A stretch of 53,280 bases of DNA from Girardia tigrina (GCA_001938485.1 MQRK01238736.1:47305-100584), one strand, 5' to 3'. Positions 27,564-52,319 are shown, counted from the first letter of the stretch. Numbers and translations: made by a program. The notes: a model not told the origin generated them from the letters alone.

Positions 27564-29086
27564 GCTCTTTCTTATTTTTTTTTATTTTACAGAATTATCC
27601 ATATCATTTTACGAGACTCTTTTGTAAATAAAATTATTTTTTTGTTGAGTCGTTTTTCAATGGAAGAATAAAAAGAATGGAACGATTAAGAAAAACACGA
27701 TTTAAAAATTTTCAATATGTTTGAAAAAATATTTACTACCAACTTGATGTATTTTAGCTCAAAATAGTTGGAAGTTCTTGGAATTCCTAGATATGAAAAT
27801 GCCGTGGAATGTATTGCAATGAGATCCGATAAATTTGACGCGACACGATATCAAATAGCACTGATATTTTGAAATAAACATTGATTCGATGTTTTCTTAA
27901 ATTGTTGATTTATTTCTTTTAATAAAAGACGAATAAATGATTTTTCTTTAAGGTTGTCTCTAGTATTGGGATTTAAATAGATCACTAAATTTTGCCCAAG
28001 TCGGTTGTCATTTATTGCTTGATTTCATGAATTAAAATTGAAAGAAAATTAACAAATTGAAATGTTTCAATATCAAGTTTTATAATGTATCATAAATATC
28101 TTTTAGTAACGCATATAGCTTTGCGTTACAAATTTTTATTAACAATAATTTTTTTCGTAATTCCATAACCTAATAAAAAAAGATAAAATGTTTACTAAAA
28201 TAAATTTACGTAACTTCAAAAACTGAAAATTCTTTTTCTGGATTTTTTGAACTTACAATAATGTGGTTCTAGTAGAAAATTCAATATTTCTGAGATTATC
28301 ATAATTTTAATATATAAATGAATTTTTAATTTTTTCAATTTTTAAATGTAAGTAATCCTGAACTTTATGTCAAAATAAGATTTAAAAAAATATAAGAATA
28401 AATTTACTTATACTATTAAAATAATATAGTTTTAGCTAAATTTATTTTTTAATTATTTTAATTTATATTTTGAAATTTTTAATAATCACTTACTTTACTA
28501 AAAAATAATATTTAAAAATTTTAATTATCCAAATTTTTAATTTATTAACAAAGAAAAATATTAAAAATAAATATACAAATAAAATTATTGGAAATAAAAA
28601 TTATCAAAATAAATTATATTAAATTATTGAAATAATTTTTTTTAATTTCTTAAAATATATGATAAAATATTTCTATAATAGCAAAATTATTTTAATATAA
28701 GATGCTGCAATTATTAATTGAATCATTAATTTGAGATTTTTGATAAAATTGAAATATAAATAAGAGTTGCTCAAATCATTTGAAGTGCAAATTTCATTAA
28801 TTTTAAAAGAAACTTGTCAAGTTTTCCTAACAAAATAACTAATTTTTGCAAGTTTATCTATTATTTAAAGTAAATTTTGAAATAAGTACAACATATTAGA
28901 CTAGATTGAGTAATGTTTTTCAAAAAATCGTTACATTTTTAAGAAATTGATGTTTTGGATACAAAAATCTACGCTTATCTCTACTATATAAAAATGAATA
29001 TTTTCTATTTACAACTAATATTGTTTTTTGGTATATTCTTCAATTTTGTATGTCTTATACCATCATGTAAGAACGGATAAACTTTC

Positions 29087-29190
29087 TGTGAACGAGAAGG
29101 TCGAAAATAAGAATTTATTTCAATGATAAGATTTACAAACTGTTCGCCAAATTCTGATTATTTAAACAAGTTTTCGACATTTCCATTACA
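29087..29190 (-). repeat. 3' LTR of Gypsy element A
   Basis: Near-identical direct repeat of 38245-38348. On the minus strand it is preceded by the polypurine tract GCAAGAGAGAG. Confidence 0.9.
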
Positions 29191-29499
29191 CTCTCTCTTG
29201 CATTCAAGGCACAAACGCATACGCCTTCTGTGCACTGGAGAGTCTCACTCGGATTTCTCCCACTTTACTGGTGACGGATCGATTGATGTGCACTGAAGAC
29301 ATCTTTTCACCACCCCCTGTACCTGCTTCTCAGTTATTCGCTCTGGACCCCACAATTTCCTCGTCAAGAACATCATCCGCTTCACCCCGAAATATTGAAT
29401 AGGATGGAGTGCCTGCAGACAATCTATCGGCTACCCCTCTCCTTCCATCGTTACTGCCGCCACATTCGGTCGATCATTTAAAGCTATCAGGTAGTCACT

Positions 29500-38232: not shown

Positions 38233-38244
38233 GTCGCGATAGCC
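38233..38244 (-). promoter_or_regulatory. Non-canonical primer-binding site of Gypsy A (GGCTATCGCGAC, complementary to a tRNA-like 5' end GTCGCGATAGCC)
   Basis: Directly abuts the 5' LTR and has no TGG. The complement fits a 7-nt acceptor strand plus T8-A9-G10-C11-C12. Confidence 0.55.
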
Positions 38245-38348
38245 TGTGAACGAGAAGGTCGAAAATAAGAATTTATTTCAATGACAAGATTTACAAACCG
38301 TTCACCGAATTCTGATTATTTAAACAAGTTTTCGACATTTCCACTACA
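38245..38348 (-). repeat. 5' LTR of Gypsy element A
   Basis: 104-bp TG..CA repeat, flanked by TSD CTTTC at 38349-38353. Confidence 0.9.
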
Positions 38349-40139
38349 CTTTCTATGAGGAAAATTCATGAATTTAGTTTTTGTTGTTGTATGCCTATTT
38401 AGAGTGACGGTTGATTATTGTTTTTAAATTCTTGATATTTGAAAGCAAGTTCATTTTAAAACTTTATATGCTATATAATATAGTTTAATGAAAATAATTT
38501 TTTAATTTAAATCGGTTTACTCGATTGTGATTAATGAGTTCCGGGTATATACTAGTCATTATAAATATGAATATGACTGTTTAACTCAATTTGGATAACT
38601 ATTACTTATATAGGTCCCTTTCAAATCCAGTTAACTAGGTTTCACTGTGCTATATTTTAATTTCTGAGAATTTAATATATAATATTCATTTAATATTTGA
38701 AATGTATTTTTATTTACCATGTATTAAATGAATTAAAATTATTATTATTAAATATATTTTATTTACTGTGGTGTTCAAAAAAAATCATTATAAATAAAAA
38801 TTCAACAAATTAAATGAATATACAAAAATTATTGTTTTTGTTTTACTAAACAAAGTGGGAAACAAATTCAAAAAAATAAGAAATATGGAATCCACCACGA
38901 CCAAAAGCAAAAGCACATCCAGTAACTTCAGCAAACACTCAGTCGTCAAATCAAAATCCCCAAACAGTACACGAGTTTTCAATTCAATGATCATTCCGAT
39001 ATATGCCCCTATTTTGCAGATTCGGTTCGTATTCTCATGTCATGTATCAATATATTTTACGCTCGTTCTATTTGTTTTTTTCTTCCCGTTCCAACGACGG
39101 AAGTTGGTGGTGCAAACTGCATACGCCAAATTTACCAAAAAGTTTTTATTTATTTTTTTTTATTTAAAAATTTATTTCTAAAAATGTATGTTCTTTTGAG
39201 ATGGTTTGGATTCTTCTGAACGATAAAACATTTTCTTCACACCATAAAGAAACTAACATAGAAATATTTCTGTAGTTTCAAAATCACTCTTTCTTAAGGT
39301 TGCAATGAATACATTCACTTTTTTCGTATTAGATTTCCTATATACACTCAGTATACAAACTAAAAAAAAGCAATTATAAAAACAACTTTAATTCAAATAA
39401 ATAAATTATAAAATCAAATTCAATTTTTATTGCACAAATCAGTCATGAAAATTAATATAAAAAAATATTTTTTTTCTAAAAACGACGTTTTCTTGAGTCC
39501 CTTATTATAAAAAAATTAAAGAAATGTGAAAAAACAAATTAAAACTAATCGAAAATCTCAGTTCCAGTTAATATCAATCCGTACATTGAAACACTGAATA
39601 ATTGAAACACCTTGAACTTCTGAGGCTCGTCTGCTATATTGTTTGGAATTCTTTAGATATTCTTTCTTTTATTTAGGAACATTTTAAAAATCAAATCTTT
39701 AGAAACTATTCTAGAGTCGTTTTAATAAAATTTTGTCCTAACAAATATCGTGTTTTCCCATTGTTCAGTCTAAGATTGACGCCTTTAGACTCGTCCATCA
39801 ATCAAGTTCCATAAAAAAATTTCTAAAGAATTATAGGCTTTGCTTTTCTTTTCCTATTTTGTATCGCAAACAAAAACTTATATTTATTTGTGTTTGATTG
39901 TTTATCGTTTCATTTCTTCAAAAAAGAACCTTGTATGTTATTATTACAAAAGTCGACATTCCTCTTTTTATAATAACGATGCATCAGTTATATTAAGATA
40001 AGAATAATTTCACAAAGGGGTGACAGAGTCAAATTCTTTTTCTTTTTAAATCATACAATAATTAATAAACAGATTTAGAAAATTAAATTAAAGAAGATCA
40101 TAAGCCTACAAAGCCACATTAATTTATCTTATATGTATA

Positions 40140-42609
40140 TTATGACTATAAGTTTAAATTTGAAAAAACTAAAGTCAAAGTTTATTGGTAATTTAGAAAT
40201 ATTTTGTTTCATTTATAAAGTATGCACCCATATTATCGATACACTTTTGCCACTTGAGCGGCAGCTTATTGAGGCTATTTGAATAAACAATTAATGGGCA
40301 AGAAGCTATAACATTTTGAAATTGAAATTTTTTTCTATATAAAAAATTGTTTAAATTGAGGAAAAATTAAGTCAGTTGGGGCTAGGTTTTGTGAGTATGA
40401 AGGATGATGTAGAAGTTCTAAATCAAATTCATGTAGTTTTTTCATGGTTTCAAGTGTAATATGTGATTTTGCTTTGTCTTTGAGCAAGATTAGAGTCGAT
40501 TTGTTTATCAAATAATACTATTTTTTGAGTTTCCGCATAATATCTTCCAATAGTTGCAGTAAACATCTGCTGTGATCGACGAACCAAGTTTCATAAAGGC
40601 ATAATAGAATACACCTGCGGCATACCACCAAACACTCACCACCAGTTTCTTTTGATGAATATTGCGCTCTGGACTGTGTTTCGTGCCATCCAGCTTGCTT
40701 AACGTTTGCAATTTTCATATTGGATCCTCTTTTCATCACAAGTGACAATTCAATTCAAAAAGTGATCACATTTATAACGAGAAAGCATCATCAAGCAAGC
40801 ATACAAACGCTTTTGGCCCTGCTTTTCATTAGTGATAGAGGAAGCTGACTCCACGGGCACCTTCAGTTCTTTAATGTCTACCTGCGGTTCTGGGCGACCT
40901 GAGACTCATTATTGAGGTAAAAATTAGCTTTCACAAATTTCCTGAACCAATTTAAGATTATCTGCTAAAAAGTAGCATCTTATCTGAATACACTATTTAT
41001 GTTTTGCATGGCTTCAGATTCTGAGGTTCCACGTAGGAATTTGTACTTCATAGTAATTCAAATTTCTGCCTTTTCCCTTTATTAAAATACTTATTATTAA
41101 AACAAGTTATCAATAATTTTAATTATATTTTATCAATGTATTCAATAGCCAAGATATGTTGTAATCCAGCAAAAAAACTGAGCACCAAAATGTCATTATG
41201 AAATTATAGGGTTGCCTCATAAGTTTTGTCGCACACATATATCTATGTTAACTGCAGATATCCTTGCATCACATAAATAATTCTTATATATTTGCAATCC
41301 CTAATAAAATGTGAATTAGATAAAATAGCATTTGTGATCTACTTATACCCAAAAATTTTTATTTTCTGTTCTAAATGAATTTTTGTTTTAATAAAATAAT
41401 ATCAATTTCGTAAATTTCGCACATTTTCATCATCCTAATGGATTTTAATCGCTCTGATATTCGTAAATTAATTTACTATTGCTGGAAAAGGGATTTAATA
41501 CCTTCACAGATGACTCACGAAATTAACACGGCCTTTGGAGTTGGAACAGTCTCAAAGAGAAAATGTGAAAGGTGGATTTCCAATTTTCGTGAAAACAACT
41601 TTAACACAGACGATCAAGTCCGCGAAGGGCGGCCCTCTCTTGACATAGACGAGAAGATAATCGAGTTTCTGACTGAAGACAAGCTTGTAAAAACGAGAAA
41701 AATTGCAGAGGGAACTGATCAGGATAAAACCACGGTGTCCCGGCACTTGAATGCAATGGGATACCGATACCTAAAAAATTGCTGGGTGCCACACGCTCTG
41801 ATGCAACAGAACAAGGATAATCGCAAAAGAATTTGTCAACAGCTATTGGATAGTTATCACCGGAATGATTTCCTGTCCAAAATCATCACCTGTGATGTGA
41901 TATGGGTGTACTAAGACAACGAAGGCGCTTTCAGCAATAGATCATGGAGAAAATTGGATGAAAACCCACTTGCAACACCAGTACGAAGACTGACAAACCG
42001 AAAGCATCTCGCCTCCGTCTTATGGGACAGTAAAGGACTGCTCTTGTTAGATGTCTTACATCCAAATGCTACAATCAATGCGGATGTCTACTGTACTCAG
42101 CTGGATCGTCTAATTATCACTGTTCAGCAGAGGCGCATTGTTCCATGGAGGACACCACAATTTTCATTATCTCCACGATAATGTTCGTCCGCATACGGAT
42201 GCTAAGACCAAGGACAAGCTGAATACACTTGGATTTACTACCACATCCACCATACTCCCCCGATCTCTCACCATCTGCCTACTATCTATTGTCTCCAATG
42301 AAATCTGCACTTAGAGGAAAGAATTATACAGGTGTCAACGATATCAACGAAGATCTTCTACATTGGTTTGGCAAGAAACCGCGTGATGTTTTCCAAAATG
42401 GGATGCGCAGCCTCCCTGGAAGTTGACTGAGATGTATTGAGCACAATGGCGACTACTTTTTGTATTTGCATGACATGGACGAATGGTAAAATATTTTATA
42501 TTTTATTGTATTTTGGTGTGTTTTTGCGACAAAATTAATGAGGCAACCCTATATAACTATTTGAATTTATGGTAATCATGTCTATAAATTTCATACTTGA
42601 TAACCTAAT
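40140..42609 (-). mobile_element. Old mariner element interrupted by a younger mariner
   Basis: IVTCDEK-like, HQKKLVVSVWWYAAGV..SITADVYC, and HPSYSQNLAPTD motifs. Degenerate TIR-like ends near 40140 and 42585-42609. Confidence 0.65.
41207..42551 (+). mobile_element. Mariner (D,D34D-type) element, full length with disrupted transposase (41438 to ~42490)
   Basis: TIRs TAGGGTTGCCTCAT..TTTTGTCGCA and the reverse complement, with TA TSD. Motifs WVPHAL, IITCD, HDNVRPH and HPPYSPDLSPS. Confidence 0.9.
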
Positions 42610-45373: not shown

Positions 45374-46766
45374 TTAGGTTGGAAACAAAGTTCTCGCACA
45401 AATTTTATTACAACTTTTATATACAACGAAACAATGCAGCAAAAGGCACATATCAATCATCAATGTAATCACCGCTATTTTCGAATACCAGCTTCCAACG
45501 ATGGGGTAGATCATGGATACCTTTGTTGTAAAATTCAACTTGTTTGCTTTTAAGGAAGTTTCCAACTGCGGCTTTCAATTCATCATCAGTTGCGAACGTT
45601 TTGCCACTCAAGAAGTTCTGCAGTGCCTGGAATAAGTGGTAGTCTGTTGGTGCCAGGTCGGGCGAGTACGGTGGCTGAGGGAGAACTTCCCACTCCAGCT
45701 CCAGAAGTTTATCACGGGTGTGATTTGCAACGTGTGGTCGGGCGTTGTCATGAAGAAACATGACATCAGTCAATTCTGGTCGTGTTTGTGCAATCGCGTC
45801 TGCCACTCGTTGCAGTTGTTGATGGACATTGATGGACTGATTGCGTTCCAACATTTTCCAGTGAATCACACCCTTTACTTCCCACCAGACACAAACCATG
45901 AGCTTCTTTTGATGAAGATCGACCTTTGCCTGAGGTTGTGCAGTTGTACCCTTGTCTGTCCAGCTTCTTCTGCGTGTCATGTTCGAGTACAGACAACATT
46001 TCTCATCTACATTAACCAATTTGTTCAGCCAATCTAAACGACGCTTCTTGGACAGTAGTGTCGTACAGGTGCTTATGGGACGTTGAAGATCGAAGTCGGT
46101 TAGTTGGTGTTGGACCCATACGTCCAGTTTGCTGACTTTGCCCATTTCCTCCAAGTGATGCAAAATGGCAGTATGGCTGACGCTAAACTTCTCAGCCAGT
46201 TCACGTGATGTCAGATGTGGATCACTTTCGACACAGGCGCACAAACGGTCATTGTCAATAAGTGAGGATCAACCCCTCCTTGGCTCATCTTTGAGATCGA
46301 TTTGGTCACGCTGAAACTTCTTAAACTAATCGTAAGCTGTGCGTTGGCCAATTGTGCCTTCTCCAAACGCTTGGTTGATACGATTTTCCGAGTGACCAGT
46401 GTTTAGCCCGGACTTGTAATCATACAATAACATGGTACGTTGCTGTTCACGAGAGATAGTCATTTTATCGGCCATATTTGAAAATTTAGATATCTGAAAT
46501 TATGAAAATATACAATTAAAAAATATTACATTTACTTATATATAAATCAATAAAACAATAAATGTATATTGTTGCATTGTTTCGTTGTATATCATTGCGT
46601 TCCAATATTTCCCAGTGAATCACACTCTTTACATCCAACCAGACACAAACCATGAGCTTCTTTTGATGCAGATCGGCCTTTGCCTGAGGTTGTGCAGTTG
46701 TATCCTTGTCTGTCCATCTTAATAAAAGTTAATAAAAGTTGTGCGAGAACTTTGTTTCCAACCTAA
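45374..46766 (-). mobile_element. Mariner element with near-intact transposase
   Basis: TIRs TTAGGTTGGAAACAAAGTTCTCGCACAA and the reverse complement, with TA TSD. Confidence 0.95.
45453..46475 (-). pseudogene. Mariner D,D34D transposase (340 codons, two premature stops near the N-terminus)
   Basis: Single frame from ATG 46475. Motifs WVQHQL, NVDEK, HDNARPH and PYSPDLAPTDYHLF. Confidence 0.9.
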
Positions 46767-48535
46767 TATATTTGTAATATTATTGAATGGTGCCTAACTC
46801 TTCAAGTAGAACACTCTTTTGTGCATATAAGTTGCTTATTATGGAAATATTTGTTATAAATTGCATTTCCAGAAGGTTTTAATTAAAAAGTTTGTTTTCT
46901 AATTTTATACACAATTTAAGGAGTAACATGTTCCTTCACATCATTTGTATTAAAATCTTTCAAATTATATTTTTTCAAAAATATGGAGAATATTTGGAAA
47001 ATTTTTGAATTTTGAAATATTATTATAAATTTATCAAAATTTTGATCATTAAAGTAATAACTCATACAAACAGTAAATGTCAACAATTAAAATATACTAC
47101 TTGACAAATGTATAAATTTGGAAGCTTCCATTTCATTTGTGACATAATCATAAATTATTACACAAAATATTACGTCAATAATGTCAACTTTAAATTATTA
47201 TATTACGACAATTGAAGTGTAATGATGCAGAATTTACGTTCCGGAAGAAACATAATATTATATTAATTACATCGCTTGACATTGAAGTCAAAACCAACAA
47301 GCCAACGGTATTTAAACTTACATTTATGACCGAGTCCTACCTGATCCGACCCTCACACCATCTGGCCAAATACAATAAAAAACTTGTTTACGTTTCATAT
47401 ATTTTAATATTATTCTTAGCTTAAAAGTCGATGTTTAAAATTTATATTATGATTTAATATATATATTTTTATTCAACTCCTTTTTCACTATTTTTCTTTT
47501 ATCTTCATGTTATTGTTGCTAATTACTTCATTAAATATTCATTGTTTTTATTATATAATATTTTATTCTTAAATGCTTCACATTAAAATTAATAATACTA
47601 AAACAAGAAAAAACTATTAAAATATTTTTATGGTAAAATAAAAACATTCAGATATTTATTTTAGATTAAGAGATCTTTCGGGAAGATCTTTATTTATTTG
47701 TGTTGTAAGAACTTAAAGTTCCCATGTTTTGGAACATCTACAAGTCAGATTTAAAATAAATGGAAATATAATATTAATAGTTTCTACTTCCTCATTCTGT
47801 ACATTTGTCCATATATTTATGATGATCAAAAAATTAGAAATTTAATTCTTAATTTTAAAATAAGATATTCCATAAAATGTTCCTAAAAGTCATTCAAAAA
47901 TCAGATTTTTCCGGAAATCGAATTTCCATTCGAAGACATGCGCTACAAACAGGAAGCAGGGGATCCTGTTTTGACATACTTCTCAAGGAATTCGATGAAG
48001 TTGTCAAATAAGACACTTGTAATCCCTATGACATAATACTTAAATAAGGAAAATAATAGCGAATCTAAATGACATTGAACACAATAATGAAATACTATAA
48101 TGAAAATAATATTAATGAAACATCTCGTATATATATAATTTCAGTTAAAATGGTGTTTATTTTAAAATATTTTCTAGAAACAAGAAAGAAAATATGAGGT
48201 TGGTGTAACTGGTTCTGAGTGAAGGGGTGAGAACTTTAATTAAAGTTCTTGGGTTTTATTTTAATTCTTCTGACTTGAGTCGTAAATGAATTACTTAGTT
48301 TAGATAAATTAAATACGAATTCTTAATATTTTAATTATTTTTTTATTTGATAATAATAAAATTACTAATTAATTAAAAATATTTAACGTTAAGACTGCAT
48401 TTCTAATGTGAATCTATGAATAGTTATTGTATTTGTAAACAATTATTCTTAATAGAGTTGTAGAATGAGAAATTAATTTTTGTTTTCCTGAGTTATTGAA
48501 ATAATGAATATATATTTTCCGTCGTTCGAAGTACA

Positions 48536-48547
48536 AGCTATCCGGGC
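48536..48547 (+). promoter_or_regulatory. Non-canonical primer-binding site AGCTATCCGGGC, complementary to nt 1-12 of tRNA-Lys(UUU)
   Basis: The reverse complement GCCCGGATAGCT is the conserved 5' end of animal tRNA-Lys(UUU). It abuts the LTR with zero spacer. Confidence 0.7.
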
Positions 48548-48552
48548 TAAAT

Positions 48553-51500
48553 ATGAACATCAAAATGTTGTTGGCGGTTATTCCCCGATTCGACGGAAAG
48601 TCGATTCCAATCAGAGAATGGATTACGAAGTTAGAAATCATCGCTGGATGTCAGGGAATCTCCGATCCCAAAGAGTGGGCTAAAATCTTGCCATTATTTC
48701 TGGAGGGAGCTGTCTTCAGGATTTATGAAAATATCGACGAGAAGCAGAGAAGCTACGAGCAAGTAATGTCAATTTTAACTAAAGCATTTGATGTAGACGA
48801 CTTCGGCGCATTTGAGCAGTTGCTGGGTCACAAATTGAAAGACGATGAAACCGTTAACGAGTATTGTGCTTCGATTAACGAAATTTCGCGACGTGTGGAA
48901 AATTTATCTTTATGTACCTTTTATAAGGGTCTGCCGACTGATGTCAAAAGGAGATTAGACGAAGCCAGGTTACGTCGCTCCCGGAGATGTTGACGCTGGC
49001 CAGGTAGCTTCTGAAGGTCGAAAAGAGTGTCCAAAGGGACATATCGATGGTCGCGTCTCGAACTAATATCTCGAGGGGGCGTGTTGGGTTCAATCATGGC
49101 AAGGCTAAAGCTCACGGGAGGTCACATGAGTCAGATGACTATGAAGTTAGATTGATGGAAGGAAACCGTCCGAAAGGCTCCTCATCGCCTTCAAAGTCTA
49201 ACATTAGGTGCTTCAGCTGTCTCCAGAAAAGCAGGAATGGTATAAAATGCAAAGCCTGTAATGGTTACGGCCATTCTGCGGGAAACGGGAGCGGGAGTAC
49301 CTCACAGTAGAGGCCGGATGTACTCCTGGAACGAAATTAATTACCAGGTCTCTTTTAATAAACGGCCGTGAGGTGGATGCGTTGATTGATTCATTGTTGT
49401 TGGTAAACCGAGAAAATTGTACTTTTGGATCACAATGATGGATGGCAGCAAAGTCCGAGTATGGAGAGTGAATTTGAGGTAGTAATTAGTGAAGCTAAAT
49501 GCATCACCGGGGTTTGATCGTTGATAGATTGTTCCCGGGATTTAACGCCATCGTTGGTCTCTACGTGATCCAACAGCTGGGAGGTGTAATAATAGATAAA
49601 GAGGCAGTTTTTTGTTGTGAGAAAATGGATTGCATCGCGATTGATGCTTGTGATAGAGAAAGGGTCTACCGATCAAAAATTACTGAGAAGAATTTTGAGG
49701 TATCATACGACCGATGTTGGAGGCTGACATGAAAATGGTCAATAGGCGAGGAACCCAAATTTGATTATCAGTGTGGAAATTACAAGTTAGTAAATCCGTT
49801 AAAGATAAGTTCGAGGAGGTCTTGGAACAGTGGATTGAGAAAGGATTCTTAACATTGTATGATGAACAGAGATTTGGACCTCCTAAGTGCACTATTCCAA
49901 TTTTTCCGGTCATTCAGGTAAATACAGACAAGATCAGACGCGTCTTTGATTTTCGACATATCAATAAGTATGTGGACGTGTACAGTGGTAACTGTGCAGT
50001 TTACTGTGAGAAACTCCTGAAGTGGAGAAAAAAGTCTGGTAAGTGCGCAATGTTGGATTTAAATGACGCGTACGTGCAGGTGTTCGTCGAGGATGAAATG
50101 CTACCGTACCAAACGATGCTATATAAAAATAAGAGATACGCACTAATCAGAATGGGTTTCGGGTTGAATGTGGGCCCAACCGTTATGACTAAAATTGTGG
50201 AGAAGGTCCTGTCGATGAATACCACGATTCATGAAGCTGCCGACGTGTATAGACAATATTTTCGTGAACGAAAGTATATTACCAGTAGATAGGTTCAAAG
50301 AGCATTTGTTAAAGTATGGATTAGTCTCAAAAGATCCAGAGAGATTTCAACAAGAAACATCTGTGAGAGTGTTGTGATTGGAAGTGCTTCGAGACAATCA
50401 TGGTGCGCTTCTCTGGAGACGTTGAAACAGATTGCTTTTAGACCTTAACGAGGTCAAAACTAGGCGTGATCTTTATTCCTTCAGTGGCCAAATAACCGGA
50501 ATAAACCCAGTCTGTGGATGGTTACGCGTTGCGACGTCGTTTCTTAAACTCCAATCTACCGGAAATTGGGACAGACCGATCCATGAAGAGTTGAAGAAAG
50601 CGATGGGAGACATGGTAGAAAGAATAAAGGAAAATGATTGCTCCAGTGGGACTTGGTCTGTGAAAGATGATATCAAAGCTATTCTTTGATGTGATGCCAG
50701 TACGTTGGCAATGGGCGTTTGTTTAGATGTTGATGGACAGAGAATTGAGGATGCTTCTTGGCTTCGTAAAGTCAATGACTGTCGACACATCTATCTAGTT
50801 GAGTTAGAAGCGGTTGTGAAGGGGTTAAACTTAGTGATTTCATGGGGTTTTTCGGACATTGAGTTGAGACTCGACAGTCAGGTTGTTTGTGGATGGATAT
50901 CGAATGTGATCAATAACGTGCAAAGAAACAAAATTAAGGCGGTTCCTGAGCTATTGATTTGTAGAAGACTTAATCTGCTCAAAGATATTGTTTTAGAATA
51001 TAATTTGAAGCTGTGTGTGGTCTACTTTAGGTCTGAGATGAATGATACCGACATCTTAACGAGAATCACTTCACAATGGTCTTTTTTAAGTCGCTCCACG
51101 GAAGGTTGTAACGTTCTTTCGGCTTCATTAGAATCGGATATCGAAAGATTTAATCAAATTCATGACAGAACGCATATGGGACTCCAGAGATCGATTTTCC
51201 TAGCGAAGGAGTTCAAAGTTAAAATCAGTGATGAAACATATCGGCAAATCATACTTCATTGTAACCGATGCCAATCTATCGATCCCGCACCGGTTCGATG
51301 GGAAAAATGGAGTTTGGATGTTGCCGAAACTTGGAAAAGAATTGCAATTGATGTCACGAAGTTCGAGGAGTCAAGGTTTCTCACCATCATTGACTGTGGA
51401 CCATCGCGATTTGCTATCTGGAGACTCATTAGAGATGAAGGAGCGCAGGAAGTCATTAAGAATTTGAGAAATGTATTCTTCGAACGTGGAGCCCCTGTTG

Positions 51501-52090
51501 AATTGTTAGCGGATAATTATGCGTCTTTTCATTCCGAATCTTTTACTGCTGAGATGAAGGCCCGGAATATTAATGTAGTGTATCGAGCCATGAACAGACC
51601 AATTTGGAATGGAATTATTGAAAGGAGCCACTGGACCGTCAAGGAGTTAACCGCGAGAGCTGAAAATGGGATCCTGGAAGCGGTTTACTTGATGAATAAC
51701 ACTCCCGGAATAAACGATAAGCCACCAGTCAAATTTTTTTAGGGGTATAAGTCTCGGTTGAAGTTGATCGGTATCTCAACCGATCAAGCAAGTAATGGAA
51801 CCTTTTGTTCAATTAAGTTCAGGGTTGGAGAAAACGTTTGGGTGAAATCAAACCAGATCCAGCGCTGTAATGAAAGATGGACAGAAGGAGTCATTAAAGA
51901 AGGAATTAGTCCTCTTAAATTTCTTGCTCTCCATCAGAAATGTTGATTCGTTGCGTAATCTCATTGACCTAAGACCGCGATCCGAGTTGATTGTCTCGAA
52001 GCTGAGCGATTCTCCTCATCGTGCTGACGACTCACCGAGCGATCATCCAATCATGGTTCCAGTTGACACGGAATCATTTGTCCGAGAGTG
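48553..52090 (+). pseudogene. Gypsy B gag-pol (frameshifted, premature stops)
   Basis: IPRFDG..EWITKLE..LPLFLEGAVF (gag), CKACNGYGH knuckle, DALIDS protease, KIRRVFDFR..LDLNDAYVQV..RMGFGLNVGP (RT), CDASTLAMG..EDASWLR..ELEAVVKG (RNase H), H..HMG..C..C and IAIDVT..LADN..NGIIER (integrase). Confidence 0.9.
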
Positions 52091-52319
52091 ACCACCGCCA
52101 ACGAGATTTCAGGACTGTCTCATGGAACGATTTAGATTTTTATGAATCTAGGGGAGATGTGGAATGAGACATATTAATTTTTGTTTTTTTAAGTTATTGA
52201 AATAATAAATATATATTTTCGTCGTTCGAAGTACAAGAGTCTTTTCAATTTATAAGGTTTAATCTTTGCATGATATGCGAGGATACCAAACATAATTTGA
52301 TCCAATATATCTACTTTTA

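Follow-up and report, generated by a model that had tools for sequence, protein, structure and literature searches.

The locus described here raises the question of how a long terminal repeat (LTR) retrotransposon starts its minus strand when the sequence behind its 5' LTR matches the 5' end, not the 3' CCA end, of a tRNA. The window, that is, the whole stretch of DNA analysed, comprises 53,280 nucleotides (nt) from Girardia tigrina (GCA_001938485.1 MQRK01238736.1:47305-100584). Within it, the element, a decayed copy of ~3.8 kb, spans 48459-52235 and is bounded by AGAGT target-site duplications (TSDs). An original prediction had described it as a Gypsy retrotransposon whose primer-binding site (PBS) pairs with the head of tRNA-Lys(UUU), possibly by a new priming mode. 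From comparisons within and beyond the host genome, we conclude that the minus-strand primer of the lineage is very probably the tRNA head, nt 1-12.

The junction proved to have the form that had been predicted (48454-48555). The left TSD, read from the sequence (48454-48458, plus strand), is followed by a 5' LTR of 77 nt with TG...CA ends (48459-48535, plus strand), whose limits are fixed by this TSD and by its match to the 3' copy, and which matches 29 other loci. The 12-mer AGCTATCCGGGC (48536-48547, plus strand) adjoins the LTR with no spacer, and 5 nt separate it from the gag ATG at 48553-48555; no TGG is present.

The 12-mer was compared with every position of a partial set of host tRNAs, comprising 50 distinct gene sequences (62 Rfam matches and later finds). 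The sole 12/12 match was position 1 of tRNA-Lys(TTT), which also settles that the host has Lys genes with the 5' end on which the prediction depended: these genes, confirmed by ARAGORN, start with the exact complement of AGCTATCCGGGC, and the base before G1 is A. The chance of such a match is ~3e-6 at position 1 of one of the 50 genes and ~2e-4 anywhere in them. Against the tRNA 3' ends, with CCA added, the best pairing was 6 Watson-Crick and 4 G:U pairs. Where the 5' and 3' strands of the tRNA differ, as in the Lys genes, the site tracks the 5' strand and not the copy of the 3' strand. Read from the sequence, tRNA-Lys nt 13 onward is unpaired with the LTR end. A site of 13 nt was rejected: across 34 families the thirteenth base is A in 20, C in 11, T in 2 and G in 1, the host base at -1 being A. 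In the family of the window element, the base after the 12-mer is G in most other copies and T in the window copy.

The site is widespread in the host genome. Among the 30 best copies of the window element's family (some loci being duplicates), 14 keep the exact 12-mer, the others are recognisably decayed and none carries TGG, so that the two findings that would have spoken against the prediction, a normal TGG site or a lack of conservation, were not encountered. The pattern of an LTR end followed by AGCTATNNNGGC occurs 2656 times in the genome, compared with 18 times for the reversed control; the first 100 matches listed comprise 68 of Lys type, 10 of Phe type and near variants. With the protein query P0121, both LTRs were present in 10 of the 20 loci fetched, and these fall into three families whose LTRs differ and whose 12-mer is identical. 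With the distant protein query P0138, 12 of 20 loci were readable, the other eight being cut off or N; all 12 have a site of the tRNA-head type and none has TGG (Lys, 2; Phe type, 6, two of them decayed; Tyr type, 4, two of them decayed). At least seven families of Lys(UUU) type, with unrelated LTRs and gag starts and the same 12-mer, are present in this genome.

Co-variation between the site and tRNA nt 1-12, which the prediction had named as a check, was observed. Four site types occur in the host genome, each complementary at 12/12 positions to nt 1-12 of a different host tRNA: Lys(UUU), Lys(CUU), Phe(GAA) and Tyr. Four of the seven acceptor positions distinguish the Tyr-type site from the Lys type; the Tyr-type site matches a minority Tyr isodecoder at 12/12 and the majority isodecoder at 11 positions plus one G:U pair. 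The minority genes contain an intron and are mislabelled as Asn by ARAGORN. The Phe-type head was assigned to tRNA-Phe because the same contig holds a 3' part that has the GAA anticodon and a matching acceptor strand. For every tRNA used, pairing ends at nt 12, within the D stem. All heads used have A at position 9; methylation of G9 would block pairing, and the constant A9 predicts that it bars other tRNAs. Heads of Thr, Ile(AAT) or similar tRNAs were not seen as family-level primers: a pattern that would include them gave 80 matches and its control 137, and the matches listed were mostly variants of the known site types.

Some of the tRNA genes themselves are broken. One tRNA-Phe gene is split by a 1.8-kb insert (L351, G000:C181207:89-1950), and ~16 nt of gene sequence are found as a duplication on either side of the insert; further tRNA-Phe halves stop at the same repeat (also L157, L158, L161 and L232-L234), and many host tRNA-Tyr genes are likewise cut off near the anticodon stem. 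These split genes possibly reflect a tRNA-targeting transposon. Dada elements target tRNA genes, but with duplications of 6-7 bp, according to the available part of PMC8869645.

Canonical priming from the tRNA 3' end was rejected, as a PBS starting with TGG was found in 0 of 30 family copies, 0 of 12 genome loci and 0 of 46 metagenome loci. Half-tRNA priming from the anticodon stem was set aside too, since the best match was always tRNA nt 1-12. A further candidate is self-priming of the Tf1 type, in which the 5' end of the element's own transcript would serve as primer and the likeness to a tRNA would be coincidental. Self-primers share the flush geometry and are of similar length (11 nt in Tf1). 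Within the window LTR, however, complementarity to the site reaches no more than 5 nt in a row, in line with the argument of the prediction, and in 14 other families the 300 nt upstream of the site offer runs of 5-9 nt including G:U pairs, with at most 8/12 Watson-Crick pairs. In none of the 15 families does the LTR show complementarity of 10 nt or more to the site. Given also the four exact tRNA matches at position 1, we consider self-priming very improbable.

If plus-strand synthesis copies the primer, an element copy that was started from a near-cognate tRNA should have taken over the sequence of that tRNA. This has been argued for ETn and MusD elements in the available part of PMC7472051. 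Within their first 12 nt, the host tRNA-Lys(CTT) and tRNA-Lys(TTT) differ at nt 7 only. The corresponding change in the site, T to G at position 6, which gives the complement of Lys(CUU), was found at 15 places in four Lys(UUU) families, representing 13 independent insertions as judged by their flanks. Independent variants at position 6 were T>G in 13 of 24 cases, T>C in 8 and T>A in 3, whereas at the control position 4 they were G in 2 of 22, C in 11 and A in 9 (Fisher p=0.0015). Compared with the background share of 19%, the T>G excess had p=1e-4 (same ATC context, 15/72). For all Lys(CUU)-type copies tested in families A and B (3/3 and 4/4), the nearest neighbour has the ordinary base. Variants of the Lys(CUU) type are what a tRNA head that serves as primer and is copied into the element should produce.

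Two further single insertions in Lys(UUU) families carry sites that are two changes from the Lys site. One of them, present as four duplicated loci, has the exact complement of the Ile(TAT) head; the other is one CpG-type change from the Phe type. These two-change insertions (L023/L030 and L264/L286-L288) are possible further conversions.

The mode extends beyond this host. For the RNase H-integrase stretch of the window element, 133 relatives are of similar length and 325 are longer, with up to 45% identity over the full length. At the protein level, relatives are recorded from Trichuris, Watersipora, Amphibalanus, Pycnogonum, Nymphon, Palaemon and Hydra, and the names cover a nematode, a bryozoan, a barnacle, sea spiders, a shrimp and Hydra. 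A metagenome scan gave 78 loci, 46 of which include the gag start. The 12-mer was found by script at 42 of these 46 junctions (34 families) and at 3 more on a second look; the remaining one was cut off, and none has TGG. By site type, nine metagenome families match the host Phe head, eight the Drosophila Phe head and one Tyr. The Drosophila-Phe site, AGCTATTTCGGC, is the end of a tRNA-Phe 5' probe published in the part of PMC7038984 that is available. Phe-type heads are the commonest across the lineage, and the mode is therefore not special to tRNA-Lys. Related families are present in four sequencing runs, as assembled contigs; viral contigs contained no relatives. In a quick tree of 65 rows, restricted to lineage members and leaving out 16 loci that had no usable stretch and another 58 in which the locus contained no site, site types follow clades; the Phe types are the most scattered, and the Tyr type falls in two separate lineages, the deep branches being weak. 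Four further loci with Phe-like sites come from prokaryote bins and are probably animal contamination.

Several of these loci have peculiarities of their own. At L128:2740-2752 the site starts with C and matches the head of an elongator tRNA-Met (a G000 gene) at 11/12 positions; this is a single locus whose LTR edge is unfixed, and, if the site is Met-derived, it would extend co-variation to the junction base itself. In L352-L354, tRNA-Ser(TGA) genes and elements of the lineage together form a tandem repeat; the contig was assigned to a bacterial bin and is probably animal DNA. Between the primer site and gag of one relative, L060:1845-1950 holds a tRNA-like sequence with a T-run terminator, flanked by a 6-nt repeat, for which ARAGORN makes no call. 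Circular permutation with a single LTR is seen in many of the metagenome contigs (L102, L107, L071, L073, L097, L118 and others), reflecting either assembly of high-copy repeats or one-LTR circles.

The label Gypsy, which the prediction had given to the element, is unproven. The domain order, protease (PR)-reverse transcriptase (RT)-RNase H (RH)-integrase (IN), is that of Ty3/gypsy, an order also common to BEL/Pao elements and retroviruses, and the group shares with Ty3/gypsy the arrangement gag-PR-RT-RNase H-IN, TG...CA LTRs, a 5-bp TSD and a purine tract. It differs in a very divergent Pol with a DUF7047 thumb and an RNase H of the RVT_3/RNase_H type, without an RT_RNaseH match. Among 40 relatives searched against Pfam, DUF7047 (the thumb region) was matched in 40, RVT_3 in 37 and RNase_H in 13, and the Gypsy-type RNase H families RT_RNaseH and RT_RNaseH_2 in none at E<=0.001; no chromodomain match was found in the lineage. 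Since none of the 40 matches the Gypsy-type RNase H families despite the Gypsy-like architecture, we call the group, hereafter the DUF7047 lineage, an unplaced lineage. That it consists of LTR retrotransposons follows from two TG...CA LTRs, the TSD, the position of the PBS and the purine tract, which recur in other families. The catalytic residues of RT, RNase H and the DDE integrase are invariant in 60 of 60 relatives, and the protease Asp in all 52 that cover it. Profile and fold searches returned distant retroviral and Ty3 matches only; the closest solved RTs, of foamy virus, HIV and cauliflower mosaic virus, are 13-16% identical. Language-model neighbours were unnamed mixed clusters, some with RT_RNaseH in 12-23% of members. 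A structure model (pLDDT 84.5) and a fold search confirm the order PR-RT-RH-IN and do not place the lineage. In the way it works, this unplaced lineage resembles a cross between the half-tRNA priming of copia and the self-priming of Tf1.

For the mechanism as a whole, our best explanation is that the tRNA head is the primer and that it is cut between nt 12 and 13, most likely by the element's RNase H; we rate this explanation as nearly, but not quite, evenly balanced against all others. The site, adjoining the LTR as the exact complement of a tRNA head, would anneal in the particle with the tRNA or its 5' half, whose acceptor and D stems would thereby be displaced. If events follow those in Tf1, the element's RNase H would then cut where the 12-bp RNA duplex ends, leaving a 3'-OH on nt 12. 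The plus strand would, as the Lys(CUU) variants suggest, copy the 12-nt primer to its 5' end, at times rewriting the site. With the site and the purine tract both flush with the LTRs, the cDNA is predicted to end in TG...CA without extra bases. Invasion of a folded tRNA is predicted to be favourable, with 16.7 kcal/mol lost and 23.5 gained (net ~7), as calculated for secondary structure only, without tertiary structure or modifications.

The enzyme that cuts is the less certain part, and to the element's own RNase H we assign about half of the confidence that we place in the head as primer. In Tf1, cleavage of an RNA duplex by the element's RNase H is reportedly required, a result said to date from Levin's work in 1996. 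In the available part of bioRxiv 10.1101/2022.12.06.519325, the RNase H of Tf1 cuts on the element's own RNA. All 60 Pol sequences compared in the DUF7047 lineage retain the four acidic RNase H residues without change. The constant end point in the D stem, whichever tRNA is used, favours a cut measured on the annealed duplex. Alternatively, host nucleases may cut or trim a 5' tRNA fragment (tRF-5 or 5' half) to 12 nt, before or after annealing, and the element may merely capture it. A 5' half has nt 1-7 freed from the acceptor stem and pairs with the site at -30.0 kcal/mol, compared with -7.1 for the half alone, while a folded tRNA offers no single-stranded end to start invasion, just nt 8-9. 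Copia uses a host tRNA half, and half-molecule priming is an established type in the available part of PMC6317226. Host trimming is harder to reconcile with an end point at nt 12 that is alike in Lys, Phe and Tyr and lies within a stem. Moreover, short 5' tRNA fragments are mostly cut in the D loop, at 14-16 nt. Overall, we regard host trimming as possible, at odds that are clearly unfavourable.

Two other readings are less likely. In the first, an intact tRNA is used and the 2'-OH of nt 12 is the point from which synthesis begins, so that the RNA-DNA is branched; this requires no cut and has the same geometry, and a 2'-OH start has been suggested for certain half-tRNA primers. From the Lys(CUU) conversions it would follow, however, that RT copies into the primer, for which it would have to cross a 2'-5' link, and we hold a 2'-OH start to be unlikely. 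In the second, the tRNA head binds but is no primer, serving instead in packaging, in translation control at the gag ATG or as a target of host 5' tRFs. The gag ATG lies 0-7 nt behind the site in many families, so that a bound tRNA could affect initiation. The site nonetheless sits exactly at the primer position with no other PBS present, its pairing does not extend past the edge of the LTR, and it undergoes conversion to the heads of other tRNAs; such a non-primer function seems slightly less likely than a 2'-OH start.

Against a copied tRNA head released by RNase H, several points have to be set. All of the evidence comes from genome sequence, with no molecule observed. In family C, some Lys(CUU) copies pair together, so not all of the 13 insertions are separate conversion events; the control for conversion is one site and thus thin, and the conversion rate is low, ~13 in roughly 1,800 (an extrapolated figure). 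Opposite tRNA position 4, every one of the 71 copies of the Tyr families has U, a 72nd match being an unrelated element. The Tyr heads listed have G at this position in 76 of 100 and A in 22 of 100; routine copying of the G4 form should thus yield C variants in the Tyr families, yet there are none among the 71 copies. In the available part of PMC7472051, Ty1 and Ty3 are reported not to copy the primer into the PBS. For five GCC-type metagenome sites (…CTAGGC, …CACGGC, …CCCGGC, …CCTCGGC and …CACGCG), no matching real tRNA of the host was found, and the host tRNA-Phe gene was recovered only in two pieces, one with the head and one with the tail. Any LTR element would be expected to conserve its RNase H, and such conservation does not point to the cut in particular. 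Additional pairing of the kind known from the three-duplex 'pretzel' of Tf1 was not found in 16 families, in which the remainder of the tRNA gave no consistent signal against U5 or the leader; U5-tRNA pairing exceeded 95% of shuffles in the two Tyr families only, which is about chance for 32 tests.

The available text of a large survey recognises three primer types for LTR elements: a whole tRNA, a half tRNA and a self-primer (PMC6317226). The tRNA-head mode fits none of these; the site is real and lineage-wide, and there is good indirect evidence for priming by a putatively cleaved tRNA. Canonical 3'-end priming, as in retroviruses and Ty3/gypsy, likewise places the PBS after the 5' LTR; the DUF7047 lineage uses the opposite tRNA end, without TGG and over 12 nt rather than up to 18. 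Scattered conversion of the PBS to other tRNAs, including a switch between Lys(UUU) and Lys(CUU) as seen here, occurs in ETn/MusD, HIV and MLV according to the part of PMC7472051 that is available. Copia and Ty5 also use half-tRNA primers, and copia-type priming is described for copia-type elements only, with a cut in the anticodon stem at about nt 39-40 of tRNA-Met or -Ile. In Osser, Bryco, Gymco-II and Bianca it likewise involves a 5' tRNA piece, and the PBS matches an internal end and not CCA (PMC6317226, in the part available). In the DUF7047 lineage, by comparison, the primer ends at nt 12 in the D stem, pairs to nt 1 and comes from Lys, Phe or Tyr (perhaps Met) tRNAs, and the domain order is not that of copia. 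Tf1/sushi elements likewise use a short 5'-terminal RNA piece and a PBS flush with the LTR, the piece being released by the RNase H of RT (bioRxiv 10.1101/2022.12.06.519325, available part), a release that we infer for the DUF7047 lineage; here the primer comes in trans from a host tRNA and not from the element's own transcript. A literature search, including by the site sequences, with Repbase, GyDB, supplements and most subscription journals outside it, found no description of priming by tRNA nt 1-12. The available parts of PMC8556966, PMC3587641, PMC6934838, PMC13524379, PMC3286476 and PMC3601003 make no mention of such a site. That a prior note on the tRNA-head site exists somewhere is unlikely, though the chance is an appreciable one.

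The rest of the window copy, all on the plus strand, agrees with a dead member of the lineage, with several breaks in both gag and pol. The interrupted 5' part of a gag-like frame (48553-48993) aligns with the gag starts of relatives and has no Pfam match; it is followed by a second, decayed gag-like piece with a Cys/His-rich end (49008-49310), where intact relatives have zf-CCHC. A reverse transcriptase piece of a broken gene (49765-50292; RVT_1, E=0.0013) precedes an open stretch of 350 aa encoding RNase H and the integrase core (50690-51742; RVT_3, E=1.5e-5; rve, E=2.5e-4), which is the stretch shared with the 133 and 325 relatives. A polypurine tract (52148-52157) lies flush with the 3' LTR of 78 nt (52158-52235), which differs from the 5' LTR by 6 mismatches and 2 small gaps, and the right TSD, AGAGT, occupies 52236-52240. 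Elsewhere in the window, decayed mariner-like transposase frames were recognised by eye from translations at 41414-41914 (plus strand) and 45453-46268 (minus strand). A MITE-like pair of 69-nt inverted repeats, 131 nt apart, lies at 6340-6608, and a direct repeat of 111 nt is found at 29086-29196 and 38244-38354, 9.2 kb apart.

Taken in its broadest form, our proposal is that the RNase H of these elements beheads a host tRNA after nt 12 and that the head is copied back, a fourth way of LTR priming in an ancient lineage across animal phyla; we advance this tentatively, with slightly more reserve than the mechanism itself. The mode is not rare, with >2,600 sites in the host genome and 34 families in a single metagenome scan, and pipelines that seek only tRNA 3' ends, as in the available parts of PMC13524379 and PMC6317226, will score such elements as lacking a PBS. 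A 12-nt RNA, a tRNA and RT would make a simple system for studying how the RNase H of RT cuts RNA duplexes and how self-priming relates to tRNA priming. If the proposal is true, the chemistry of Tf1 would act in trans on a tRNA, linking tRNA priming with self-priming. The 5' tRNA fragments, for which a role and a target in defence are thereby predicted, would then be direct players in retroelement replication.

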